A DNA stretch of 64,000 bases from Christensenellaceae bacterium (lineage in GTDB: Bacteria > Bacillota > Clostridia > Christensenellales > Borkfalkiaceae), in the NCBI GenBank assembly GCA_045536025.1, contig JAZSMT010000034.1, positions 2,085 to 66,084 of the forward strand, written 5' to 3'. Within the stretch, counting starts at the first letter, position 1. Every line of letters begins with the position of its first letter. Shown here piece by piece: positions 14,866 through 61,584 of the stretch. The position numbers and the translations under genes are program-made. Below the pieces are notes generated by a model. The model worked only from the letters and a program-made list of their open reading frames with translations, had not been told where the DNA came from and did not search any database.

Positions 14866-16137
14866 ATGAAAATAGCAATTAAAAAGTTACCTTACGAAAA
14901 AGTTATATGCTTAAAAAAATTCAAGCATAAAAATCCTAAAAAGCCGAGCAGGCTACTTAAACTTATTATAAGGTTAATTTCAGCAAAAGCTCTTAAAAAC
15001 GTCAACTTTTCCTATGCTTTTCCGCAAAAAGATGCTATCGGCAAAGGCCCGTTTTTAATACTTATGAATCACTCAAGCTTTATTGATTTTCAAATAATAT
15101 CAAAAATCTTTCCAAAGCTTAGATACAATATCGTTTGCACTACGGATACTTTAACCGGCAAAGAGCTTTTAATGAGGTATATAGGCTGTATCCCCACTCA
15201 AAAATACGTGCACGACGTAACGCTTATAAAAGATATGGCATACGCCGTTCAAAAACTAAAAACAAGCGTGGTAATGTTTCCCGAAGCGGGCTACTCGCTT
15301 GACGGTTCAGCAACGCCTATTCCCGATGGGTTAGGTAGGCTTATTAAACTTTTAGGCGTTCCCGTAATATTTGTTAAAACTAGCGGTGCGTTTCATCACG
15401 ATCCACAGTATAACTGTTTGCAAAAAAGAAAGGTTGACGTTTCAGCCGACGTCAGCGTTTTAGTGAGTAAAGACGATATTCTCTCTAAGTCCGCAAGCGA
15501 GCTTTCAGACCTCGTTGAAAAGGCTTTTACTTTTGATAATTTCAAGTGGCAATACGATAGAAAAATTGAGATAACCGAAAATTATCGTACCGACGGGCTT
15601 GAAAGGGTTTTATATAAATGTCCAAACTGCAAAACTGAGGGAAAAACCCTTGGAAAAGGTATTCATTTTACCTGCAACGCTTGCGGTAAAATTTACGAGC
15701 TTACAACGCTTGGTAGGATGAAAGCAGTAAACGGCAAAACGGAATTTGAACATATTCCCGACTGGTATAAATGGCAACGCGCCGAGGTTAAAAAAGAGAT
15801 TATAAACGGCGATTACACTCTCGACTTAAAAGTTAGAATAATGATGATAGTTGATTATAAATGCGCGTACGACGTAGGAACTGGACGGCTTATTCATAAT
15901 AATAGCGGTTTTACCCTCACGGGGGACGACGGCGTTTTAAGCTACACTCAAGGCCCGCTAACTAGTTATTCGCTCAACTCCGATTACTACTGGTACGAAA
16001 TAGGCGACGTTATATCGTTTGGTGATAAAACCGCCCTATACTACTGTTTTCCGACTGAGCAAGGGGTTGTATCAAAGGCTCGCCTTGCAACTGAAGAGCT
16101 TTATAAAATAACAAAGCAAAGCCTTTCAAAAAATTAA
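14866..16137 (+). CDS. PlsC-family acyltransferase with internal zinc ribbon
   Basis: HX4D motif NHSSFID. CPNCKTEG...CNACGK. Paralog at 40865-42187. Confidence 0.6.
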   Translation: MKIAIKKLPYEKVICLKKFKHKNPKKPSRLLKLIIRLISAKALKNVNFSYAFPQKDAIGKGPFLILMNHSSFIDFQIISKIFPKLRYNIVCTTDTLTGKELLMRYIGCIPTQKYVHDVTLIKDMAYAVQKLKTSVVMFPEAGYSLDGSATPIPDGLGRLIKLLGVPVIFVKTSGAFHHDPQYNCLQKRKVDVSADVSVLVSKDDILSKSASELSDLVEKAFTFDNFKWQYDRKIEITENYRTDGLERVLYKCPNCKTEGKTLGKGIHFTCNACGKIYELTTLGRMKAVNGKTEFEHIPDWYKWQRAEVKKEIINGDYTLDLKVRIMMIVDYKCAYDVGTGRLIHNNSGFTLTGDDGVLSYTQGPLTSYSLNSDYYWYEIGDVISFGDKTALYYCFPTEQGVVSKARLATEELYKITKQSLSKN

Positions 16138-16146
16138 CTTTAACGC

Positions 16147-16176
16147 AAAAAACTCTCGTAAAAGCGAGAGTTTTTT
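16147..16176. terminator. Bidirectional terminator
   Basis: AAAAAACTCTCG-loop-CGAGAGTTTTTT. Confidence 0.75.
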
Positions 16177-16203
16177 AATATTATAAACTTATTAGGAACA
16201 ACC

Positions 16204-16330
16204 TTTTAAGACGCTAGAAACAAGTATAACGAGGCTCACGAAAAAGGTGAGATTGGATAGACTTTTTTGGTCATCCAAGTCCGACTTTTGAGTAGAAACA
16301 AAGTTATACGCCGTTTATAACGTTTTAAAA
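16204..16330 (+). repeat. Structured interspersed element, copy A
   Basis: Contains the blocks TTTTAAGACGCTAG, GAGGCTCAC, ATAGAC-T6-GGTCAT, GTAGAAAC and ATAACGTTTTAAAA. Stems GTATAAC/GTTATAC and TTGGAT/ATCCAA. Confidence 0.8.
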
Positions 16331-16332
16331 AT

Positions 16333-16361
16333 AAAAAAAGCATAGATCAACCCTATGCTTT
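16333..16361 (-). terminator. Intrinsic terminator of the rplJL transcript
   Basis: Minus-sense AAAGCAUAG-loop-CUAUGCUUU followed by U7. Confidence 0.7.
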
Positions 16362-16394
16362 AATTATCTAACGCAAAGCTTATACAAAGCTCTA

Positions 16395-16523
16395 TTTTAA
16401 GCCGGTAGTTTGGGTATTAGACGAGGCTCACGCAAGACGATAAGCAGAGATAGACCTTTTTGGTCATCGAGGTTTATCGGCTAAGTAGAAACGAAGTATA
16501 ATGCCCGAAATAGTGGCTTAAAA
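16395..16523 (+). repeat. Structured interspersed element, copy B (ends at the base before the rplL stop codon)
   Basis: Same blocks as copy A. Outer stem TTTTAAGCC/GGCTTAAAA, inner stem TTTGGGTATTA/TAATGCCCGAA. 107 nt identical to copy C. Confidence 0.85.
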
Positions 16524-16892
16524 TTATTCAGCAACAGCAGTAGCGCCAGCTTCTTTAAGCTTAGCAACCATCTTTTCAGCTTCGTCTTTAGCAACAGCTT
16601 CTTTAACGGTGCCAAGTTTTTCAACCATGTTCTTAGCTTCAACAAGACTAAGACCAGTAAGTTCTCTAACTGCTTTAATAACAGCGATTTTGTTTGCGCC
16701 AACTTCTTTAAGAACAACGTTGAATTCAGTCTTTTCTTCAACTGCTTCAGCTGCGGGAGCTGCAACGCCTGCTACTGCAACGGGAGCTGCTGCGCTAACG
16801 CCGAACTCTTCCTCAATTGCTTTTACTAAACTGTTAAGTTCCATAACAGTCATACCTTTAATTTCTTCTATCATTTTTGCAATATCTGCCAT
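16524..16892 (-). CDS. rplL: 50S ribosomal protein L7/L12
   Basis: 122 aa; Ala-rich hinge; contains [16 protein letters not shown]. Confidence 0.96.
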
Positions 16893-16948
16893 TTTAAATT
16901 TCCTCTCTTTATAATTTATAATTTGTTTTTTAAGACGGTTTATTTTAA

Positions 16949-17440
16949 TTATTCGCCCATCTTCTCGGCAACTCTGTTAAGAGCAACTGCCAATCCACGA
17001 ACAAAGTTCGAAAGCGTTCCTGCAAGCATGCTGTAAAGAGCATCTTTTGAAGGAATTGCCGCTAACGCTTCTACGCCCTTTTTGTCAACGTATTCACCGT
17101 TAACGTAAGCGCTTTTTGCCACAAGTTTATTATCATACTTTTTAGCGTTATCAATTACGATTTTTGATGCGCCAGTTTCGTCGCTACCGAAAGCAACTGC
17201 GGTAGTGCCGTTAAGGTCTGCATCAAAACTGTCAACGCCGAGTTCGTTAAACGCTCTTCTAATAAGCGTGTTTTTAAGCACTTTGTATTCAACGTTGGCT
17301 TTTCTGAATTCATTACGAAGTTCAGTATCTTCTGCAACGGTTAAGCCATTGTAGTTTACTAAAACTACCGACTTACTGTCCGAAATTTTTGCCTTAATGC
17401 TTTCAACAACCTGCTTTTTAGCCTCTAAATTTGCTGACAA
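16949..17440 (-). CDS. rplJ: 50S ribosomal protein L10
   Basis: 163 aa; TTG start with GGAGG upstream; L10-like. Confidence 0.92.
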
Positions 17441-17597
17441 CTTCTTTACCTCCGTTATTATTTTTACCTAATGAAAATCCGCTTTTTGCCGAGCATGGCA
17501 AAAAGCGGACGTAAAAAATATCTGCTTATTTATCCACAACCTCGGCAGGTGTAACGTAAACGTTACTTAAAAACCGGCTTTCTTCGGCTATTGATTG
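17441..17597 (-). promoter_or_regulatory. rplJ (L10) leader with terminator hairpin at 17474-17509
   Basis: Position between the promoter and rplJ. Minus-sense 13-bp hairpin UCCGCUUUUUGCC/GGCAAAAAGCGGA followed by UUUUC. Consistent with the attenuation-type L10 leader of Firmicutes. Confidence 0.6.
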
Positions 17598-17604
17598 TAC
17601 GGTA

Positions 17605-17633
17605 ATTTTAGCATACCGCACCTTATTTGTCAA
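17605..17633 (-). promoter_or_regulatory. sigma-A type promoter of rplJL
   Basis: Minus-sense TTGACA, 17 nt, TAAAAT. Confidence 0.65.
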
Positions 17634-17719
17634 ACGATTTTTACTAAAACCGAATAAAAACTTATTATCCTTATATAACGCACACGCGTATACAAGTTGT
17701 TAAACTTCTTAAAAGCTCA

Positions 17720-17847
17720 TTTTAGGCGTTAGTTTGGGTATTAGACGAGGCTCACGCAAGACGATAAGCAGAGATAGACCTTTTTGGTCATCGAGGTTTA
17801 TCGGCTAAGTAGAAACGAAGTATAATGCCCGAAATAACAACTTAAAA
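17720..17847 (+). repeat. Structured interspersed element, copy C (between rplA stop and rplJ promoter)
   Basis: 17730-17836 is identical to 16406-16512; the flanks differ. Confidence 0.85.
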
Positions 17848-17849
17848 AA

Positions 17850-18536
17850 TTAGTTTTTAACTTGTACTTTAACGCCAGGTCCCATAGTGCTTGCTAATGA
17901 AATACCTTTAATGTATTGACCTTTTGCAGCAGCGGGTTTAGCTTTAACGATAGCATCAAGTAATGCGTTGTAGTTTTCGATAAGCTTTTCTTTACCAAAG
18001 CTCTTTTTACCGATAGAACAGTGAATAACAGCCGTTTTATCAAGTCTATATTCTACTTTACCTGCTTTAACGTCTTTGATTGCCTTTTCAACGTCCATAG
18101 TAACGGTGCCTGACTTGGGGTTAGGCATTAAACCCTTAGGACCTAAGAGTTTACCGATTCTACCTACCATACCCATCATATCAGGGGTGGTAATCATAAC
18201 GTCGAAATCAAACCAGTTTTGCTGTTGAATTTTAGCAATCATATCTTCAGCACCAACGTAGTCAGCGCCTGCTTTTTCAGCGAGGTCAGCCTTGTCACCC
18301 TTAGCGATAACTAAAACCCTTGAAGTTTTACCAGTACCGTTAGGAAGAACGATAACGCCTCTAACTTGTTGGTCAGCTTGCTTGGGGTCAACGCCGAGCT
18401 TGGTGTGAAATTCGATAGTTTCATCGAATTTTGCTTTTGCAGTGTTAAGTACGATATCCATAGCCTCAGCTACGTCGTACTGTTTAGTTGTATCAAACGC
18501 CTTAATGCTGTCAGCGTATTTCTTTCCAAATTTCAT
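17850..18536 (-). CDS. rplA: 50S ribosomal protein L1
   Basis: 228 aa; L1-like, containing [11 protein letters not shown]. Confidence 0.95.
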
Positions 18537-23548: not shown

Positions 23549-24313
23549 ATGTATCCTCACGAATTATTTTTAGGAATACACCTTTACGGCGTTATGATAT
23601 CCGTTGGTATTCTCGCCTGCTTTTTGGTGCTTTACTATATGGGTAAGAAAAAGGGTGTAAACCCTAACTTTTTAGACTTTGTGTTTTATAACGCGGTAGT
23701 TGCAATCGCTTTCGGCTTTTTAGCCGCCGCACTTTTTCAAGCTACTTATAACTATATTCAAAACCCCGAAGAGGGCTTTAACCTCGGTAGCGGTATAACG
23801 TTTATAGGCGGTTTAATAGGCGGTGTTGTAAGTTTCTTAGCAATTTACTTTATCTTTAGAAAAAAACTTTCAGGAAAACTTACGGATATTATTGCAATTG
23901 CACCAAGCTGTATTACGGTAGCTCACGCCTTCGGGCGCGTAGGCTGTGCGTTTGCAGGCTGTTGCTACGGTAAGGTAACCGATAGCCCTATCGCTATGTA
24001 TAACCACGGCGCTTGGCGTATTCCCGTTCAACTTTACGAGGCAGGCTTTTTGTTTATACTCTTTTTCGTGTTTACCTATCTCGTTTTGAGAAAAGACTTT
24101 AAATACACCTTGCCGTTGTATCTTTTCTTCTATGGAATATTTAGGTTTATTATCGAGTATTTTAGAGACGACGCAAGAGGTTCAATTGGAACTAGCGTAA
24201 TATCTCCGTCTCAACTTTGGTCGATAGTAATGGTAGTTGCAAGCGTTTTGGTTTTCTTGTTATTAAAATACGTTTTTGAGGGCAAAAAGGAGCCTATAAG
24301 TCGAAATGAATAA
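23549..24313 (+). CDS. lgt: Prolipoprotein diacylglyceryl transferase
   Basis: Start moved to the ATG at 23549 (GGAG upstream). Polytopic; contains HAFGRVGCAFAGCCYG and the FRFIIEYFRDD motif. Confidence 0.85.
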   Translation: MYPHELFLGIHLYGVMISVGILACFLVLYYMGKKKGVNPNFLDFVFYNAVVAIAFGFLAAALFQATYNYIQNPEEGFNLGSGITFIGGLIGGVVSFLAIYFIFRKKLSGKLTDIIAIAPSCITVAHAFGRVGCAFAGCCYGKVTDSPIAMYNHGAWRIPVQLYEAGFLFILFFVFTYLVLRKDFKYTLPLYLFFYGIFRFIIEYFRDDARGSIGTSVISPSQLWSIVMVVASVLVFLLLKYVFEGKKEPISRNE

Positions 24314-24896
24314 GTTTAAGACGATATTAAAACTATTTATAACGATGTTTAAAGTGGGGCTTTTCACCTTTGGCGGCGGATATGCAATGATAGCCGTTTT
24401 AGAACACGAATTCATTGAAAAGAACGGCTGGATTAAAAGGGAGGAGTTTTACGATATGCTTGCCGTTGCCGAGTCAACCCCAGGCCCTATCGCAATAAAC
24501 TCGGCAACGTTTATAGGCTACCGCTTAGCAGGGGTTTTAGGCTCGGTGTTTGCAACTATTGCAATGTGCTTACCCTCGCTTATAATCATCTATATAATAT
24601 CTTTGTTTTTTGATGCGTTTTTATCAATAACGCTAGTTGCTTACGCCTTTAAAGGTATTCAAGCGTGCGTGTGCTACTTAATACTTTCAGCTGGTATAAA
24701 AATGATTAAAAAACTTAAAAAGACGGCGCTTACCTTAACGCTTACCACCTTTACATTTATTGCGTATATTACGCTTACGTTGTTTGCGGTAAAATTCTCG
24801 TCAATTTTCTATATTTTGATAGGCGCGGGCATTTCGCTAACGGTATACCTTATAATCGTAGTTTCTAAAAAGCAAAAAGGGGGAGATAAGCAATGA
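24306..24896 (+). CDS. Chromate transporter family protein (half-size, first)
   Basis: FTFGGGYAMIAVLEHE...AESTPGPIAIN; CHR family signature. Confidence 0.8.
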   Translation: MNKFKTILKLFITMFKVGLFTFGGGYAMIAVLEHEFIEKNGWIKREEFYDMLAVAESTPGPIAINSATFIGYRLAGVLGSVFATIAMCLPSLIIIYIISLFFDAFLSITLVAYAFKGIQACVCYLILSAGIKMIKKLKKTALTLTLTTFTFIAYITLTLFAVKFSSIFYILIGAGISLTVYLIIVVSKKQKGGDKQ

Positions 24897-60460: not shown

Positions 60461-60489
60461 AAAACTCTCGTTTTTACAAACGAGAGTTT
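60461..60489 (-). terminator. Intrinsic terminator of prs (downstream of element D)
   Basis: Minus-sense AAACUCUCG-loop-CGAGAGUUUUU. Confidence 0.7.
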
Positions 60490-60501: not shown

Positions 60502-60629
60502 TTTTAAGACGTTAGTTGCAAGTTAAAGAAGGCTCGCATAGACGGGTGGTTGCAATAGACCTTTTTGGTCATTGCAGACGCACGGCGACGGCAGAAACGC
60601 ACTTTAACGACGCAAATAACGAATTAAAA
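60502..60629 (+). repeat. Structured interspersed element, copy D (ends 1 nt from the prs stop codon)
   Basis: Blocks TTTTAAGACGTTAG, AAGGCTCGC, ATAGACC-T5-GGTCAT, GCAGAAAC and ATAACGAATTAAAA. Stems GTTAAAG/CTTTAAC, TTGC/GCAA and TTGCAAT/ATTGCA. Confidence 0.8.
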
Positions 60630-60630
60630 C

Positions 60631-61584
60631 TTAGTAGCTATTGTAAATATCAGACATCTTTCTATCGTGATAAACGTTTTCGATAGCAAGTGCGAAAAGC
60701 TTAGCACAAGATACGACTTCAATTTTATCAATCTTCTTTTCTTCGGGAAGCTGAATAGTATCTAAAACTACGAGCTTGGTGATGTGTGAATTTTTAATTC
60801 TTTCAATCGCAGGGCCACTAAATACGGCGTGCGAGCAACAAGCGTAAATTTCTTTAGCGCCGTTGTTGTAAAGGGCTTCAGCACCTTGAACGATAGTGCC
60901 TGCGGTATCAATCATATCGTCAACCATCAAGCATTTCTTGCCTTTTATATCGCCGATAATGTTCATAACTTCAAGCTGATTTGCTTTGGGACGGCGCTTA
61001 TCAATAATAGCCATCGAGCAACCGAGCTTACCAGCTACGCTTCTTGCTCTCGTAACCGAGCCAACGTCGGGCGATACGACAACGAAATCCTCGTCAACTT
61101 TATCTTTAAAATATCTAAATAAGAGAGGACCGCCCACTAAGTGGTCAACGGGAATATTGAAAAAGCCTTGAATTTGAAGAGCGTGTAAGTCCATCGTTAA
61201 AACTCTATCTGCGCCAGCAGCTTGAATAATATCTGCAACGAGTTTAGCGGTAATGGGGTCTCTAGGTCTTGCCTTTCTATCTTGACGAGCGTAACCAAAA
61301 TAAGGTATAACCGCCGTTATACGACCTGCCGACGCCCTCTTTGCCGCGTCAATCATAACGAGTAATTCCATTAAATTATCGTTAACCGGTTGCGACGTTG
61401 ATTGAATTAAGAAAACGTCTTTACCTCTTACCGTTTCGCCGAGATGAACATTTATCTCCCCATCACTGAAACGACTAACTTCGATATTGCTGAGTTGCAT
61501 ATCTAACTCTTTCGCAATTGCCTCTGCGAACGGTCTATTTGAATTGCCCGCAAAAAGCTTTATCTCTGTTCCGTGTGTTATCAT
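60631..61584 (-). CDS. prs: Ribose-phosphate pyrophosphokinase
   Basis: 317 aa containing FSDGE, YARQDRK and DDMIDTAGT. Confidence 0.95.

Follow-up and report, generated by a model that had tools for sequence, protein, structure and literature searches.

The stretch of Christensenellaceae DNA analyzed here (64,000 nt, hereafter the window) contains four copies, denoted A to D, of a non-coding element of about 128 nt, each located downstream of a housekeeping gene encoded on the minus strand. A sequence-only reading of the window had reported the four same-strand copies along with the sequence blocks that they share; both the coordinates, all on the plus strand, and the blocks proved correct. 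The copies and the features next to them are as follows.

16148–16178: bidirectional terminator of the ACTCTCG..CGAGAGT family, closing the array rplL-B-A
16204–16330, plus strand: copy A (118.7 bits with the covariance model), the second array unit downstream of rplL in the mRNA sense, past the T-tract of the terminator at 16337–16361
16257–16274, plus strand: invariant hairpin at the tip of copy A, GAT-A-GAC(C/T)-T5-GGTC-ATC, in which one A is bulged; the equivalents are 16450–16467 (B), 17774–17791 (C), and 60555–60572 (D)
16337–16361, minus strand: intrinsic terminator of the GCATAGG..CCTATGC family, between copies B and A
16395–16523, plus strand: copy B (101.7 bits), with its 3' end directly at the TAA stop of rplL (16524–16526, minus strand)
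16926–16948, plus strand: probable scar (TTTTTTAAGACGGTTTATTTTAA) left by a copy lost from the rplJ-rplL spacer, where the related locus L109 has a full copy
17720–17847, plus strand: copy C, between the rplA stop (17850–17852, minus strand) and the rplJ promoter/L10 leader
60462–60489: second bidirectional terminator of the ACTCTCG..CGAGAGT family, adjoining copy D
60502–60629, plus strand: copy D (135.4 bits), ending 1 nt short of the TAA stop (60631–60633) of the gene for ribose-phosphate pyrophosphokinase (minus strand)

The core sequence ATAGACYTTTTTGGTCAT occurs four times in the window, against 0.13 occurrences expected from shuffled sequences. The covariance model, which was derived from 78 full copies of the element, recovered exactly copies A to D in the window, with scores of 100 to 135 bits, and the next match, obtained with the filters off, scored 16 bits. 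Copies B and C differ by a single change in the interior and at 6 positions in the outer stem. Comparison with Rfam 15 at gathering thresholds detected only a tRNA in the window. A permissive search (E <= 10) of the region 16100–17900 returned the L10 leader upstream of rplJ (39.1 bits, below the threshold) and chance-level matches of at most 24 bits. In neither scan did the element match an Rfam family (the hammerhead, twister, pistol, HEARO, and IS605-orfB motifs included), in agreement with the sequence-only reading, which recognized none.

A family of hairpin repeats in gut Christensenellaceae

We searched 185,579 species-representative genomes with the pattern GGCTCRC-N(8-38)-ATAGACYTTTTTGGTCAT and obtained 97 loci from 36 assemblies (species-level genomes), all of which are Christensenellaceae or unclassified Clostridia metagenome-assembled genomes (MAGs) from human and ruminant guts. 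When applied to these loci, the covariance model identified 139 copies beyond the four in the window. The unit is discrete, non-coding, and 128 to 132 nt long, with TTTTAAG and CTTAAAA at its ends. The family is wider than the search pattern: further subfamilies keep the basal blocks and differ in the apical parts, loops, and stems, with the apical stem represented by GACC/GGTC, AACC/GGTT, GAAC/GTTC, or GTAC/GTAC. Variants that diverge past GAGGC (GAGGCACAAGATT.. and GAGGCGTTTG..) were considered as candidates for a longer, autonomous relative and turned out to be other subfamilies of about 130 nt, not a long, ORF-bearing element. The phage and plasmid collections contained no match to the element, and a scan of viral contigs yielded only chance matches to an 18-mer. 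No description of this hairpin repeat family was found in the searchable literature; it is a previously undescribed family of gut Christensenellaceae.

Compensatory evolution of the fold

Each of the copies A to D is predicted to fold into one end-to-end, rod-like hairpin, with plus-strand energies of -37 to -51 kcal/mol and z-scores of -5.1 to -7.6; the reverse complements fold too, less well. The RNAalifold consensus of 78 copies consists of 33 pairs, 22 of which show compensatory double changes. When 120 copies were aligned to the model, 95.0% of the pair cells were paired, compared to 78.5% in column shuffles and to only 21 to 44% when the 3' partner was slid by 1 to 3 columns. Both sides have changed in 28 of the 33 pairs, and the covariation score is 0.432, against 0.148 in the shuffles. 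The helices vary in sequence yet remain paired, and this holds for the terminal one (helix 1), in which 9 of the 10 pairs have changed on both sides. Compensated variants of the terminal and the next helix include TTTTAAGACG/CGGATTAAAA, GAAACGAG/CTTGTTTC, and TTTGCTTT/AAGAGCAAA; another example of covariation is the alternation among copies between CTCAC...GTAG and CTCGC...GCAG. The invariant parts comprise several G.A mismatches, a C.A mismatch, a bulged A, a T.G pair beside tandem G.A, and the tip GAT-A-GACC-T5-GGTC-ATC.

This combination of invariant blocks and covarying stems indicates that the fold is selected, as had been proposed from the four copies in the window: the stem differences noted there are real and extend to the 120 copies. 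The pairing of the termini with each other, also proposed earlier, is maintained through compensation in the terminal helix, and covariation of this helix argues against a sequence-specific terminal inverted repeat. The suggested pseudoknot between AGAAA and the T5 loop, by contrast, was abandoned, given that it shows no covariation: among the copies with a T5 loop, AGAAAC is present in 46 and AGTAAC, AGTTAAC, or AGTAAAC in 51.

For 111 of 122 copies, the predicted fold is more stable on the plus strand; mean energies are -45.5 kcal/mol for this strand and -39.4 kcal/mol for the reverse complement. The excess of G-T pairs on the plus strand, which the sequence-only reading took as weakly favoring this strand, is present among the consensus-model pairs (170 G:T against 35 A:C) but originates mostly from one helix: about 130 of the 170 belong to the three-pair helix 7, beside the tandem G.A. 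In per-copy folds of the other helices, the hypervariable one included, the counts are 82 G:T and 32 A:C; outside helix 7, G:T makes up about 2.5% of the pairs, a low share for a typical RNA family. The folding preference for the plus strand stands and is modest. Mutational bias as the source of the G:T excess was rejected by reasoning, deamination of the G-rich sense strand being predicted to produce the reverse asymmetry.

Docking at stop codons and fixed orientation

Three features are new relative to the sequence-only reading, namely, docking at TAA, orientation fixed to the gene and the replichore, and tandem arrays. A gene was called on the 3' side of 110 copies; it is convergent in 105 of them, and its stop codon lies within about 10 nt of the 3' end of the element in 61; the copies without a close stop are mostly second or third members of head-to-tail arrays. 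At the 5' end, a stop codon abuts the element in none of 35 cases. Of 64 adjacent stop codons, 63 are TAA, compared to 81% for all genes in the same loci. In about one-third of the cases, this TAA lies within the TTTTAA of the element, which supplies the last codons and the stop of the gene. The 3' end of the element, then, lands on a TAA stop, supplies one, or meets the T-run of a terminator. Viewed in the mRNA sense, the element comes after TAA (with 0 to 2 nt in between) or after a T-run, and no single 4- or 5-mer target is definable. The genes next to the element have housekeeping roles: rplL, rplA, prs, gap, tpi, pta, purH, mnmA, and a hydrogenase gene.

The element has one orientation per locus, in every locus, and the 11 contigs that carry several blocks of copies, up to 136 kb apart, each show a single orientation. 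In 70 of 73 loci, and likewise throughout the window, GC skew is negative in the orientation of the element, so its plus strand is the C-rich one and the inferred template of the leading strand. This strand is also antisense to the neighboring gene. Because the adjacent housekeeping genes are mostly leading-strand, gene strand and replichore go together here, and either may set the orientation.

Transcription across the element

The reverse complement is certainly co-transcribed in those cases in which the element is located between a stop codon and a terminator (copies B and D) or within an operon (copy C and the copy in the rplJ-rplL spacer of L109). A dedicated intrinsic terminator often lies 10 to 30 nt downstream of the element in the mRNA sense; the GCATAGG..CCTATGC terminator hairpin recurs in several species and is at most 30 nt from a copy in 8 of its 9 occurrences. 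The element itself has no U-run after the hairpin in either orientation, and terminator scans revealed only separate, classical terminators beside the copies.

On the plus strand, no sigma-70-like promoter was found upstream of copies A, B, and D, and a weak match upstream of copy C (9 of 12 positions) ends 52 nt before the start of the element. The 5' flanks are heterogeneous and consist of terminator tails, 3' ends of preceding or degenerate copies, and unrelated DNA. The motif YTTATnnAA found in some of these flanks was considered as a -10 box or as a part of the element and was rejected, being heterogeneous and not common to near-identical copies.

Gain, loss, and replacement of copies

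For 16 pairs of copies that occupy unrelated loci and have interiors at least 97% identical, the proportion of differences jumps from about 0 to 50–90% at alignment columns 6/7 and 152/153, just outside TTTTAAG and CTTAAAA, indicating sharp unit boundaries. L079 (SIG397) and L096 (SGB_6712) share a copy that is identical at 140 of 140 positions, in flanks that are not homologous. The two genomes share 88.4% identity in orthologous coding DNA; at a divergence of 12%, common descent would not be expected to leave 140 bases unaltered (0.88^140, or about 2e-8).

Occupancy of individual sites was compared between the window and related loci; for the rplL site, the comparison was made through close RplL homologs, the exact RplL protein of the window being without a record.

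Site after rplL: two copies in the window; one copy, past the terminator, in L104; none in L101–L103, L105, L109, and L110
rplJ-rplL spacer: a full copy only in L109; a remnant of about 20 nt in the window, L101, and L105
Site after rplA: filled in the window and in L101–L109, by differing subfamilies; empty in L110–L113
Site after gap (GAPDH): no copies in the window and L095; three copies each in L035 and L041

The RplL proteins of L101–L105 and L109 are 95 to 100% identical to that of the window, and that of L110 is 87% identical. Copies are arrayed head-to-tail, with units joined by 0 to 4 nt in arrays of 2 to 4, and the copy number in an array varies between orthologous loci. Some arrays include truncated units, with a recurrent break just before CAG(A/T)AAC. 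Taken together, gain, loss, head-to-tail multiplication, and subfamily replacement at one site all occur among close relatives. Some copies are kept at one site across species, which runs against mobility as the whole account and could mean that they have a function there.

In near-identical pairs, such as B and C, the outer stem has diverged about sevenfold more than the interior (14.8% against 2.2%), a fast divergence that simple copy-and-paste mobility does not predict. A target-site duplication and a clean empty site were sought, and neither is definable because the ends of the element and its targets are both TTTTAA-like. TTAA is found at both ends in 72 of 113 copies; given that it is palindromic and lies within the stem, a duplication would be indistinguishable from it. 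Downstream of rplL and in the rplJ-rplL spacer, the sites that seem empty already contain remnants resembling TTTTAAG or GTCTTAAAA. Within about 4 kb of the copies, no transposase, recombinase, reverse transcriptase, or other protein family was found to recur, which weighs against a mobile element.

Relationship to known palindromic repeats

The element resembles the REP and REPIN sequences of the RAYT (Y1 HUH) systems in being a short, intergenic, palindromic, non-coding, and non-autonomous repeat that is present in many copies at gene 3' ends and shows compensatory stem changes; the mobile unit of REPINs is thought to be a long, single-stranded hairpin. However, REPs are 20 to 40 nt long with a GTAG/CGTC head, and REPINs are inverted doublets, whereas the element is one 128-nt hairpin, the arms of which are not palindromes themselves and the ends of which lack the GTAG head. 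Furthermore, its arrays are head-to-tail rather than alternating, its orientation is locked, and no RAYT gene is found near its copies (about 4 kb). Without a REP head or a doublet architecture, the element was not assigned to this group.

With PATEs, the elements related to IS200/IS605, it shares an orientation that appears tied to the direction of replication, probable recognition of structure over sequence, the absence of an evident target-site duplication, and apparent insertion beside short, AT-rich sequences. The architectures differ: in PATEs, each end has its own subterminal hairpin, and terminal inverted repeats are absent, whereas the element is a single end-to-end hairpin with paired termini, which argued against assigning it to PATEs. 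No TnpA or TnpB was found near the copies (about 4 kb). The strand that folds better is the inferred leading-strand template, opposite to the IS608/ISDra2 rule for the top strands of IS200/IS605 elements, an observation that weighs against the mobile reading.

ERIC, Correia (CREE), and RUP elements are, similarly, interspersed imperfect palindromes of about 100 to 160 nt that are co-transcribed as RNA hairpins and can form nested or tandem copies. These miniature elements have conserved terminal inverted repeats and TA-type duplications and occur in both orientations, in contrast to the locked orientation of the element, the docking of its 3' end on TAA, and its covarying terminal helix. The latter changes with compensation where a DDE-mobilized MITE (ERIC, Correia, or RUP) would have a conserved terminal repeat, and this assignment was also rejected. 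Finally, integron attC sites (such as the VCRs of about 125 nt) are, like the element, imperfect palindromes (57 to 141 nt) that directly follow the stop codon in a fixed orientation, with structure better conserved than sequence and with invariant mismatches and extrahelical bases, and fold as the single strand that is antisense to the gene. The differences from attC are that the element is not accompanied by an integron (intI, attI, or a cassette array) and adjoins core housekeeping genes, that it has GTTAG on the 5' side and ATAAC on the 3' side where attC has R'' (RYYYAAC) and R' (GTTRRRY), respectively, and that its apical part is the most conserved one, whereas that of attC is variable. 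The reversed box polarity and the lack of integron context led us to reject attC membership. Given that it lacks defining features of each of these groups (REPINs, PATEs, attC sites, and DDE-type MITEs), the element is a bacterial interspersed palindromic repeat that is a member of no named family.

A proposed mobile hairpin repeat and the alternatives

We estimate at roughly 50% the probability that the element is a non-autonomous, mobile hairpin repeat that is recognized by its structure, behaves similarly to REPINs, PATEs, and attC sites, and is carried in the 3' regions of mRNAs. The mobile candidates named in the sequence-only reading (MITE- or PATE-like) are in this general sense the best fit, in view of the polymorphism, the arrays, the identical copies in different species, and the strand lock; specific membership in ERIC/Correia or PATE did not survive the comparison of defining features. 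Presumably, a trans-acting enzyme recognizes the fold of the single strand and not a sequence at its ends, and insertion would be coupled to the strand asymmetry of replication and/or transcription, with T-rich or TAA sequences at the 3' ends of leading-strand, well-expressed genes as the likely targets. Insertion coupled to strand asymmetry at such targets would explain both the strand lock and the docking. Once inserted, the element would be co-transcribed, as its reverse complement, into a long hairpin in the mRNA 3' region that could be tolerated or mildly useful, and copies would probably be lost by deletion across the stem, leaving scars of about 20 nt.

A less likely alternative is a cis-acting RNA of the mRNA 3' region, in which the reverse complement hairpin would serve as a barrier to 3' exonucleases, an RNase III site, or a protein-binding module. 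Selection for such a function would explain the position and the orientation of the copies and is compatible with a mobile origin; the element begins at or inside the stop codon of genes with housekeeping roles that are probably well expressed, often with a dedicated terminator 10 to 30 nt beyond that recurs in sequence with the element, the copies after rplA are retained in all close relatives, and both strands fold well. Yet it is the mRNA-sense strand that folds less well in 111 of the 122 copies, and wobble tolerance favors the other strand, 82 to 32. Little transcript is expected from the many copies located past the T-tract of a terminator (all three in L035, copy A of the window, and the copy in L104), relatives with 95 to 100% identical RplL live without copies after rplL, and arrays of 2 to 4 units, as well as truncated units, are hard to explain functionally. 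If it is instead the plus strand that acts as RNA, the better folding of this strand, its RNA-typical features (G:U and U.G pairs as well as conserved tandem G.A mismatches), and the A-run, hairpin, and T-run that follow some copies in the plus orientation as a possible terminator could reflect a family of independent small RNA genes acting in trans or as antisense. Such a gene had been among the earlier candidates and now appears improbable: copies A, B, and D lack a sigma-70-like promoter and C has only the weak match, the 5' flanks are heterogeneous, the 0 to 4 nt between tandem units leave no room for a promoter, the 3' end enters the convergent coding region without a terminator in 61 of 110 copies, G:U accounts for about 2.5% of the pairs outside one helix, and Rfam contains no matching family. 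A duplicated intrinsic or hairpin-dependent transcription terminator, which a very stable hairpin at gene ends might bring to mind, is highly improbable because the hairpin lacks a following U-run in both orientations, canonical terminators of their own come after the element, and the operon-internal copies (rplJ-rplL in L109; rplA to the rplJ promoter), which require read-through, rule out strong termination.

The remaining possibilities concern a folded, single-stranded DNA substrate. In one, which we regard as unlikely, the element is an attC-like recombination site, and a site-specific recombinase swaps the interior of the hairpin at fixed docking sites at gene 3' ends. The location directly 3' of the stop with fixed orientation, the better-folding strand being, as in attC, the antisense of the gene and the inferred template of the leading strand, the size within the attC range, the conservation of structure over sequence, and the invariant mismatches and bulges all accord with such a site. 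So do the differing subfamilies at one site in close relatives, the identical interiors with differing outer stems (2.2% and 14.8% divergence, respectively), and the pairing of GTTAG with ATAAC at the foot of the exchangeable part. Against it stand the polarity of the GTT/AAC boxes, reversed with respect to R''/R' of attC, the adjacent genes, which are core genes and not cassettes, the lack of an integrase recurring within about 4 kb, and the homology of near-identical copies, which reaches the tips of the outer stem instead of stopping at GTTAG/ATAAC. A broader version, to which we give slightly more credence while still considering it rather unlikely, is that the hairpin is the substrate of a structure-specific transaction on single-stranded DNA that docks exchangeable cassettes of about 105 nt onto leading-strand TAA stops, that is, an integron-free, attC-like system. 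The agent may be an HUH-type or a recombinase-type enzyme, or else reverse transcription of the 3'-UTR copy into folded antisense DNA.

Implications

Christensenellaceae rank among the gut bacteria with the highest heritability and the closest association with health, and we know of no previous work on their repeats and RNA elements. The combination of features found here, namely, compensatory evolution of the whole element, docking at TAA, a strand lock across the replichore, head-to-tail arrays, and rapid turnover from species to species, has not been described before. On the practical side, the repeats coincide with MAG contig ends and with the synteny break downstream of rplL, and the copies that supply the stop codon can alter the last codons of the annotated protein. 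For biology, the family offers a clean system for the choice of strand and target by structure-recognizing mobile DNA and a system for the effects of hairpins on the 3' ends of highly expressed mRNAs.

Probable element traces and gene order around rplJ and rplL

The rplJ–rplL spacer of the window carries a short sequence, TTTTTTAAGACGGTTTATTTTAA, that resembles what would remain if a copy of the hairpin element had been lost and its two ends joined. At the same site, the spacer of L109 (L-numbers denote comparison loci from other genomes) contains a full element copy; the spacer of the outgroup L110 contains neither a copy nor a remnant. Upstream of rplJ lie a ribosomal protein L10 leader, missed by the default Rfam scan because its match, at 39.1 bits, falls short of the gathering score (44), and a consensus promoter, located immediately downstream of element copy C in the mRNA sense.

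16926-16948, rplJ–rplL spacer: TTTTTTAAGACGGTTTATTTTAA, putative element remnant
17464-17605, minus strand: ribosomal protein L10 leader
17633-17605, minus strand: promoter, TTGACA-17-TAAAAT with TG

Comparison of window positions 16138-16523 with L101-L110 showed that synteny is lost directly past rplL among genomes whose RplL proteins are 95-100% identical. In the window, rplL is followed by a gene for an acyltransferase homologue; L102 has a MatE transporter gene in this position and L109 an AP endonuclease gene. L101 and L105 both have an uncharacterised gene of 269 aa there.

Recurring terminators and an element-like skeleton

Two terminator families recur in and beyond the window.

16337-16361: intrinsic terminator, stem GCATAGG..CCTATGC (also in L032, L039, L041, L051, L079, and L096)
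16148-16178 and 60462-60489: bidirectional terminator, AAACTCTCG-loop-CGAGAGTTT (also in L012, L040, L063, L064, L068, L101, and L105-L108)
24302-24346, plus strand: element-like skeleton, TTTAAGACGAT-ATTAAAA...TTTATAACGATGTTTAAAG

The stem of the first family is the same in several species, at differing loci, and an element copy lies within 30 nt in 8 of 9 occurrences; terminator and element may move as a pair, or both may favour a common site. Members of the second family likewise occur in several genomes, at loci unrelated to one another, with an element copy no more than 80 nt away in 5 of the 12 occurrences. The skeleton, which lies in the overlap of two plus-strand genes, lacks the element interior; with a score of 10 bits (E = 5), it may be either a relic or a match that arose by chance because the coding sequence is rich in A and T.

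Broken array units, contig ends, and protein C-termini

In head-to-tail arrays of L049, L054, L062-L064, L017, L030, and L092, some units retain the 5' arm and tip and then break at one recurrent point, after ..AAG and before CAG(A/T)AAC. Past the break, a short degenerate segment resembling the 3' end (YYTATTnnAAC..) precedes the next unit. Element copies are frequently found at or near MAG contig ends (L016, L026, L035, L045, and several short contigs, L005, L007, L008, and L013), which suggests that these repeats break short-read assemblies.

The orthologous glutamine amidotransferase-like genes of L070 and L053 encode different C-termini (..YCWTGKKN* and ..YCWSGK*, respectively) because the terminal stem of the element contains the last codons and the stop. 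The element therefore slightly reshapes protein ends.
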